Part shown: one piece after another, positions 46,072 to 47,082 of the stretch
Numbering within the stretch: the first letter of the stretch is position 1
Layout: every line of letters begins with the position of its first letter
Assembly: GCF_003334335.1 (NCBI RefSeq)
Contig: NZ_QOWQ01000007.1
Source: Escherichia coli
GTDB taxonomy: Bacteria > Pseudomonadota > Gammaproteobacteria > Enterobacterales > Enterobacteriaceae
Direction: 5' to 3' (one strand)
Length of the DNA: 64,000 nt
The notes under the pieces: model-generated
Seen by the model: only the letters and a program-made list of their open reading frames with translations
Told to the model about the DNA's origin: nothing
Databases searched by the model: none
Translations under genes and position numbers: made by a program

Positions 46072-47082
46072 GTGATCATCTATGATGGAATTATAGAAAA
46101 ATTGCAGTCTGGCGGTGGTGTTACCGTAGTTTTTAATGAAATTGTCTCGAGGTTAACAGAATATAAATATATTAGCTATGACACTTGTTCTAAAATATCG
46201 ATAGCTAGAAACAATATGATAAAACCATCAAGATTTTTGGAACGATATAGAGATTGTGTTATTCCTGATTACAATCCTCAAGATAAGGCTATATTTCATT
46301 CGACTTATTATAGATTACCTCATCATTTGAACATACCAGTCATAACAACAGTTCATGATTTTACCTATGAAAAGTTCGTTGATGGTCCTGCGAAGAAGAT
46401 TCATTCATGGCAAAAAAATAGAGCAATACGTCGGAGTGATATAATCATCTGTGTATCACAAAATACCGCAAATGACTTGATGAGATATTGTCCGGTAAAT
46501 TCCAGTCGTATTCGTGTAATATATAATGGAGTTTCAGATGAATATTATCCTTTACCCGAAATTAATAATGTTGATTCTCAAAAAGTATTGTTTGTAGGGG
46601 CAAGAGGTGGTTATAAAAACTTTGAATTAGCAATAGATGCAGTTTCCTCTGTAGCCGGATTAGAGTTACATATAGTGGGGGGGGGGGATTTAACAACACA
46701 AGAAAAAATAAAATTAGAAAGTAAATTGTCGGGTAGATATTTTTGGTTGGGTAAGCTTACAAATCAAGAGCTAAATATTGCATATAATAGTAGCTATGCG
46801 TTGCTTTATCCATCAAGTTATGAAGGTTTTGGAATCCCAATTATCGAGGCAATGCGTGCTGGTTGTCCAGTTATTGCTGCGAATTCGTCTTCAATACCTG
46901 AAGTTGCTGGCGATGCGGCAATATTAGTGGATGATTTGAATATATCTACTTTTCGCGAAGCCCTATTAAGCATACCAGCATGTCGCAATGAATTGATCTC
47001 CGCAGGTTTCGCACAGTCTAGAAAATTTTCTTGGGAGCGCTGTTTCCAGGAAACGTTATTAGCTTATAATGAATTGCTTTAA
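46072..47082 (+). CDS. Glycosyltransferase family 4 (GT-B); contains in-frame G11 tract
   Basis: 336 aa, apparent GTG start; '[35 protein letters not shown]' is a clear GT4 E-X7-E region; G11 run at 46677-46687 encodes GGG. Confidence 0.75.

Follow-up and report, generated by a model that had tools for sequence, protein, structure and literature searches.

A poly-G tract as a probable slippage hotspot and O-antigen ON-to-OFF switch in a WbyK-like glycosyltransferase gene of Escherichia coli

Introduction

Coding homopolymers in glycosyltransferase genes are known from the poly-G/C loci of Neisseria (lgtA/C/D and siaD), Campylobacter jejuni (lipooligosaccharide and capsule) and Helicobacter pylori (fut), where slipped-strand frameshifts turn the genes ON and OFF and tract length is polymorphic among close relatives. 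Here, a tract of this kind is described in Escherichia coli, an uninterrupted run of eleven G (G11) in a glycosyltransferase family 4 (GT4) gene of a rare O-antigen cluster. It lies in a 64,000-nucleotide stretch of contig NZ_QOWQ01000007.1 (assembly GCF_003334335.1), referred to below as the window; features are given in window coordinates and, unless stated otherwise, lie on its plus strand. G11 is probably a slippage hotspot in a WbyK-like GT4 gene that would act as an ON-to-OFF switch of the O antigen. The loci of Neisseria, Campylobacter and Helicobacter comprise many tracts with broad mixtures of ON and OFF states, whereas a single tract is present here, in a mismatch-repair-proficient species, with the ON state predominant and contractions only. 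Campylobacter and Helicobacter are not known to have mismatch repair of the MutS/MutL type.

Surface variation in E. coli is usually ascribed to epigenetic switches and invertible elements, not to simple-sequence slippage, and the O-antigen clusters of this species are treated as stable serotype markers. A literature search returned no report of a poly-G or other homopolymeric tract in an E. coli O-antigen transferase. With the G11 tract, a familiar type of switch would occur in an unexpected host and at an unexpected locus.

The pgtA (pglA) gene of N. gonorrhoeae likewise carries an 11-G tract in the ON frame of a glycosyltransferase open reading frame (ORF), where it encodes consecutive glycines and where G10 truncates the product; the alleles of other strains are interrupted and non-variable, as the orthologs of the present gene are interrupted (PMC2193922). 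When the gonococcal 11-G tract was placed on a plasmid in E. coli XL1-Blue, ON-to-OFF and OFF-to-ON switching both occurred at about 1e-2, and the four ON-to-OFF variants that were sequenced all had G10 (PMC2193922). G10 is the dominant change there in E. coli and here in natural isolates. Tracts of at least 7 G/C are cited as sufficient in Neisseria (PMC2193922). The two systems differ in their host, that of pgtA being a classic contingency-locus organism whose isolates carry tracts of 9-20 with expansions as well as contractions, and in their target, which is the pilin O-glycan there and the lipopolysaccharide (LPS) O antigen here.

Homopolymers of E. coli show an exponential increase of the indel rate with length, and in K-12, G:C runs of 8 bp already count among the outlier hotspots (PMC8510543). 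In the K96 (group 3) capsule locus, the A7 run of kpsC undergoes rare, reversible frameshifting to A6, which was seen in the laboratory and recurs in natural genomes; the authors discuss potential phase variation (PMC13410964). This case shares with G11 the species and the setting in a surface-polysaccharide locus; it differs in comprising only seven A, in the low proportion of unencapsulated cells (about 0.004% of cultures) and in belonging to the kps locus and not to an O-antigen cluster. Since G11 is four bases longer than the kpsC run and mutability depends exponentially on length (PMC8510543), a far higher mutability is to be expected of G11. The usual O-antigen phase variation of Salmonella and other enterobacteria is that of the Dam/OxyR-controlled gtr operons, which also produce heritable ON/OFF heterogeneity of O-antigen structure (PMC2909390). 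There, epigenetic promoter methylation governs the addition of a side glucose to the completed O unit (PMC2909390), whereas at G11 the DNA itself changes in length, within the gene of a core O-unit transferase, and loss of the polymer is expected.

An eleven-G tract in a GT4 gene

The gene in question (46072..47082) encodes a retaining GT4 glycosyltransferase of the GT-B type with 336 amino acids, a WbyK-like putative mannosyltransferase according to its RefSeq annotation ('glycosyltransferase family 4 protein'), Pfam domains and homologs. A run scan of the sequence located the slippage-prone homopolymer at 46677..46687. Eleven is its ON length, at which GTG GGG GGG GGG GAT (46675..46689) is read as V202-G203-G204-G205-D206, in agreement with the translation, the homolog alignment and an AlphaFold2 model. 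A preliminary description of the window, made from its letters, had reported these 11 G in frame inside the GT4 gene, and both the exact sequence and the translation agree with it. It had further called such a run improbable in DNA of about one-third GC. This view is supported by a GC content of 35% in the gene and by the statistics of the run: G/C runs of at least 11 are expected 0.019 times per window under independent and identically distributed bases, and the G9 pattern gave three overlapping matches compared to 0.20 expected from dinucleotide shuffles, of which 0 of 100 reached three. No other G/C run of the window is longer than 8. The second-longest, C8 at 10321-10328, falls in the last codons of a 145-amino acid minus-strand ORF (10304-10741).

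An identical G11 was found in five independent sequences, namely the window, three RefSeq complete E. coli genomes and one metagenome contig (the latter four being L001-L004). These sequences span two alleles, A and B, which are separated by 13 substitutions in the gene (1.3% divergence); among them, allele B is carried by one complete genome and the metagenome contig. A scan of metagenome DNA with a variable-gap pattern gave one match only, again G11. The agreement of five independent assemblies and two alleles rules out that G11 itself is a sequencing or assembly error, and the preliminary description's alternative of a homopolymer artefact does not hold for the G11 state.

Among 27 homologs, G203, G204 and G205 are invariant and V202 is nearly so, which identifies the three glycines as a protein requirement. 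The closest orthologs, from Aeromonas, Edwardsiella, Citrobacter and Yersinia pseudotuberculosis, encode them with mixtures of GGT, GGA and GGC in which runs do not exceed 4. At the motif, Aeromonas has GTT GGT GGT GGA, Edwardsiella GTT GGC GGT GGA and Citrobacter GTT GGT GGT GGT; the Y. pseudotuberculosis gene differs from the present one in writing VGGG as GTA GGT GGA GGG, without a long run. Because these orthologs encode the same glycines with interrupted codons, the G run stems from codon choice. Outside the tract, GGG accounts for 25 of the 174 Gly codons of the cluster (1 of 17 in the GT4 gene) and GTG for 26 of its 196 Val codons, and the probability of GTG-GGG-GGG-GGG given the peptide is about 4e-4 with local codon usage.

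Runs at the motif reached at most 6 in 80 more distant homologs among the matches listed, with the exception of Y. nurmii CIP110231T (L016:1501-2499). In this one genome, a G9 run occupies the same codons (GTG GTG GGG GGG GGC) and may be a second, independent slippage-prone allele. The preliminary description had proposed to look for an interrupted codon series in homologous genes. Such a series was indeed present in the closest orthologs, and by the same comparison of sequences G11 is a lineage-specific and improbable run, not a conserved feature.

Length variants in public assemblies

The products of other tract lengths were predicted in silico and then sought by exact sequence in public assemblies. 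The frame is kept by G8 and G14. G10, and likewise G13 and G7, lead into the -1 frame, in which the sequence is read GGG ATT TAA and translation ends at the TAA at 46691..46693, which gives for G10 a protein of 206 amino acids ending in ...VGGGI. The +1/-2 frame (G12 or G9) leads to the TAA at 46722..46724 and to products of 217 and 216 amino acids, respectively. Public assemblies contain the 206-amino acid G10 products of both alleles and the 216-amino acid G9 product of allele A, and a 335-amino acid member that lacks one glycine exists. At the DNA level, about 16 distinct contigs were confirmed to have G10; they belong to NCBI, ENA and Logan assemblies, and several are metagenomic (L005-L013, fetched again as L105-L111 to extend the flanks, together with L112 and L113). 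G9 was confirmed in two contigs (L014 and L015) and G8 in one 4.76-Mb genome (L103). Heterogeneity of tract length among isolates, which the preliminary description had asked for, was therefore encountered as G8, G9 and G10, on at least two independent backgrounds. A shorter run of another kind is seen in P0143 (HIH7761497.1), where the substitution D206N (GAT to AAT) at codon 206 leaves G10 followed by A with the frame kept; this is an edge substitution and not slippage.

Allele-B G10 has B-specific single nucleotide polymorphisms (SNPs) on either side of the tract (32 bp upstream, 29 bp downstream) and hence arose independently of allele-A G10. These flanking SNPs, together with differing structural backgrounds, rule out that G10 is a single clone. 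Allele-A G10 is found on two haplotypes, A1 (L005/L108 and L009/L110) and A2 (L006, L007 and L008), and each background has G11 relatives; independence of A1 and A2 is weaker than that of A and B, as recombination of a 2.7-kb segment is possible. All four lengths from G8 to G11 were found on allele-A sequences that carry no substitutions in the surrounding 1.5 kb, except for two in L010. The occurrence of four lengths on an otherwise unchanged allele indicates that the tract changes far faster than ordinary sites.

In some variants nothing else has changed. When compared to the G11 complete genome L001, the contigs L108 and L110 differ solely in the tract over 18.8 and 11.6 kb, respectively, and the tract is the sole difference inside the cluster between L105 and the G11 genome L002. 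These three G10 contigs, which represent two independent backgrounds, have all other cluster genes at full length and look like phase-OFF states or very recent losses; with their clusters otherwise undamaged, they could revert.

The GT4 protein and the predicted effect of a frameshift

PF13439, PF00534 and PF13692 are recorded on P0001, a 98%-identical cluster representative of the GT4 protein, which combines an N-terminal Glyco_transf_4 domain with a C-terminal Glycos_transf_1 domain. In OFF contigs, PF13439 stays on the N-terminal fragment and PF00534 is found on a separate C-terminal ORF. The E-X7-E motif of the donor-binding domain, E251-GFGIPII-E259, is encoded at 46822..46848 (E251 at 46822-46824 and E259 at 46846-46848), and both glutamates are invariant in the 27 homologs. 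As the motif lies downstream of the tract, all out-of-frame variants lose it, and the preliminary description correctly predicted that the protein would be cut short ahead of E-X7-E by a change of one base.

The AlphaFold2 model (pLDDT 90.3) contains a strand at residues 198-202, a loop at 203-208 and a helix at 209-218, so that the model places the tract glycines in the loop that follows beta-strand 2 of the C-terminal Rossmann domain. Relatives of solved structure found by sequence profile are MshA-like proteins, WbaZ-1, PimA and WbnH. A Foldseek search of the model against the PDB returned MshA, an M. hassiacum mannosyltransferase, GlgM, BshA, WaaG and WbnH with probability 1.00 and TM-scores of up to 0.74. 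The predicted fold is the GT-B fold with two Rossmann domains.

The closest homologs come from Aeromonas (70% identity), Edwardsiella (67%), Citrobacter (66%) and Yersinia (55-57%); gmd is located directly downstream in all of them, and the sources of several relatives use the name 'mannosyltransferase'. NCBIfam offered no equivalog-level name for the GT4 gene or its neighbours. Searches of E. coli genomes by blastn gave only partial matches to other GT4 genes and no second E. coli cluster with an ortholog. In Y. pseudotuberculosis, WbyK forms the main-chain linkage alpha-Man-(1->3)-Fuc, and the module order is gmd, fcl, manC, wbyL, manB (PMC5399914). The 55%-identical Yersinia GT4 protein (P0080), presumably WbyK by its gene position, is encoded directly upstream of gmd as in the present cluster, and the gmd-fcl-manC-GT-manB order of the Yersinia M1 module resembles gmd-fcl-gmm-manC-GT2-manB here (PMC5399914). 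By these likenesses in sequence and gene order, the GT4 enzyme is probably a WbyK-like main-chain mannosyltransferase that adds backbone mannose onto fucose.

From these data a mechanism can be proposed, in which we infer that slippage occurs and how often, as well as the mannosyltransferase specificity, the effect on LPS and the reversibility. The glycine-demanding site is here encoded entirely by GGG and flanked by GTG and GAT, which yields eleven identical bases. During replication, the nascent and template strands may misalign in the run by slipped-strand mispairing, the loss of one G being the commonest outcome. G10 would then bring a TAA five bases further on into frame and direct the synthesis of a 206-amino acid protein in which the C-terminal nucleotide-sugar-binding domain, with E-X7-E, is almost entirely missing, a predicted null allele. 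Since the enzyme probably adds backbone mannose, the OFF state should remove the O polymer: with this mannose missing, completion of the O unit would stop and the cell would have rough or truncated LPS, not one altered decoration. The preliminary description had expected one sugar addition to be switched on or off, which is probably not the case for a WbyK-like main-chain enzyme, as judged from homology; loss of the whole O polymer is the most likely result. The gain of one G would restore the frame, so that the switch is reversible in principle.

Switch, decay or artefact

The G11 locus displays three structural and population properties of a contingency locus: a long repeat in frame, length polymorphism with little other change (in which two to three variant contigs may be platform errors) and a frame that is shifted in and out by length. 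It is possible, if rather doubtful, that G11 is a selected contingency locus that turns the whole O antigen ON and OFF rapidly and reversibly in the gut, for example in escape from O-specific phages or secretory immunoglobulin A.

Several observations weigh against a switch. No such run is present in the closest orthologs and the two G11 alleles are only 1.3% apart, so there is no evidence of long-term maintenance of the tract; a divergence this low gives no power to show that selection has kept it. Exact look-ups of the G12, G13 and G14 products of alleles A and B found none of them, which leaves contractions only. G11 dominates with about 178 of 187 contig records, about 9 (some 5%) having other lengths, counts that are approximate because one isolate may occur under several sources. 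Such dominance is as compatible with purifying selection on the ON state, interrupted by occasional losses, as it is with switching. Several OFF clusters, among them all OFF alleles of haplotype A2, bear further irreversible lesions. Some variants are of uncertain quality: L014 (G9) also has three A8-to-A7 contractions, L012/L106 (G10) has two A-run contractions and the G8 genome L103 may be a long-read artefact. Finally, the WbyK assignment is taken solely from 55% identity and gene position. Phase variation is by definition reversible and frequent. What stands of the phase-variation switch suggested by the preliminary description is an in-frame tract with recurrent predicted null alleles; the restriction to contractions, the share of about 95% for G11 and the irreversible lesions in several OFF clusters speak against it.

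The lesions of the OFF clusters were mapped. L007, L008, L109 and L111 break at an IS1 end near 44506 in the gene of a 307-amino acid glycosyltransferase (GT) and in addition have an A9-to-A8 change in the adjacent GT1 gene. The A9 run is located at 45530..45538; its contraction to A8 in this one G10 lineage is a frameshift that splits GT1 into products of 215 (P0124) and 171 (P0123) amino acids in four NCBI contigs. The G9 contig L015 breaks at an IS1 end near 45683, within GT1. Terminal repeats of IS1 occupy L007:1-54, L008:1-29 and L015:1-23, which amounts to two independent insertions in the cluster of the tract; the identity of IS1 was confirmed by the occurrence of the 54-nt end in 4,959 of 5,426 genomes, adjoining IS1 transposase genes. 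L006, L010 and L107 (G10) share a clean 4,043-bp deletion (41562-45604) that takes most of wzx, all of wzy, the 307-amino acid GT gene and the 5' part of GT1. Its junction, at 2533/2534 in L006 and 467/468 in L010, was seen in an NCBI assembly (a contig present in 4 samples) and in a Logan contig, and no obvious repeat was found there. Another change was observed in L111, a low-coverage ENA contig, in which about 400 bp are missing at the manC/GT2 junction (L111:6357-6458 compared to window 50810-51219) and about 100 nt stand unaligned instead; this is either further decay or misassembly.

Some OFF states are accordingly irreversible decay. Possibly, in cells that no longer need the O antigen, the tract simply decays faster than any other site. 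Alternatively, the frameshift may come first, and dead-end lipid-linked intermediates would then possibly select for blocks in earlier steps.

These lesions, with the lack of the run in the closest orthologs and with the strong predominance of G11 and the failure to see expansions, are what would be expected if the tract were only a mutational liability, that is a neutral codon accident whose OFF forms are secondary decay or dead-end losses, with no switching role and no natural reversion. G10 is, however, the sole lesion in L105, L108 and L110, on two independent backgrounds, which demonstrates that the tract can be the first hit. The codon configuration is improbable, and a plasmid-borne G11 tract reverts readily in E. 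coli (PMC2193922). We regard a mere liability as unlikely; it departs from the proposed slippage switch only on reversal and selection.

Platform or assembler errors at homopolymers form a less probable alternative, in which the gene would stably be G11 (or truly interrupted) and the G8-G10 records of the databases would be false. The additional A-run contractions in L014 and L012/L106 suggest reads that undercall homopolymers. L103 is a 4.76-Mb single contig probably built from long reads, and its sister assembly has split neighbouring genes. Some contigs break near the tract, P0148 ending four codons before it. L014, L012/L106 and L103 were treated as unreliable. An error of this kind is countered by the uninterrupted G11 of the five independent assemblies, including the three RefSeq complete genomes, and by the recurrence of G10 across pipelines and sources (NCBI, ENA and Logan), with no other homopolymer change over 11-20 kb in L105, L108 and L110. 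Moreover, G10 is common to groups of samples that share other lesions, namely the deletion junction of L006 and L010 and the IS1 end with A8 of L007 and L008, and its sharing along with lineage-specific lesions points to inheritance and not to random error.

It is very improbable that the tract serves expression tuning, with slippage of RNA polymerase or ribosomes producing a mix of full-length and truncated enzyme that sets its level or partly rescues G10: long homopolymers can cause transcriptional slippage in bacteria, but in E. coli this is documented mainly for A/T runs, and heritable DNA length variants were directly observed here. None of the present observations points to such tuning, and stimulatory frameshift signals were not noticed, no search aimed at them having been made.

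The O-antigen cluster

The cluster that contains the tract extends over 41368..53245 and comprises wzx, wzy, GT, GT1, GT4, gmd, fcl, gmm, manC, GT2 and manB, as deduced from the RefSeq annotation of identical or near-identical loci and the ORF list. It is flanked by galF and gnd. The genes around GT4 are wzy (42803-44023), the 307-amino acid GT (44033-44956), GT1 with 370 amino acids (44949-46061) and gmd (47100-48224). The cluster is rare and occurs in 3 of 5,426 complete E. coli genomes. No O-group name was contained in the source names of its carriers, and a literature search did not resolve the serogroup.

Upstream of wzx, an ops element (GGCGGTAG) was identified in a JUMPStart context at 41113..41120 by pattern match and by its characteristic flanking CAGTGCTCTGGTAGCTGTAAAGCCAGGGGCGGTAGCGTG. 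A second ops copy in JUMPStart context is located at 16574-16581, upstream of the colanic acid cluster. The role of RfaH and ops is well established, and the O-antigen and colanic acid operons are presumably RfaH-dependent. Given ops and JUMPStart on the operon, RfaH should limit the Rho-dependent polarity that a premature stop in GT4 would exert on gmd through manB.

A further homopolymer difference concerns the 3' end of wzy, where the A7 run of the window (44009-44015) is A6 in L001, L005, L009, L108 and L110. The two forms differ in the C-terminus of Wzy, which has 410 or 406 amino acids. Both are common (18 and 21 contigs) and both are apparently tolerated.

Implications

If G11 is a selected contingency locus, it would be the first case of simple-sequence-repeat phase variation of an E. 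coli Wzx/Wzy O-antigen cluster, and cells that are lastingly OFF would gather second-site lesions in earlier transferase genes. A hotspot in the gene of a core O-unit transferase would account for the recurrence of O-rough or non-typeable isolates with this genotype, and in silico serotyping based on gene presence can miscall the phenotype in such a situation. The combination of the frameshift with lesions in upstream transferase genes makes it testable whether undecaprenyl-linked dead-end intermediates select second-site blocks. With this locus, E. coli would also become a tractable model in which to ask if an enteric bacterium proficient in mismatch repair can acquire and retain contingency loci.

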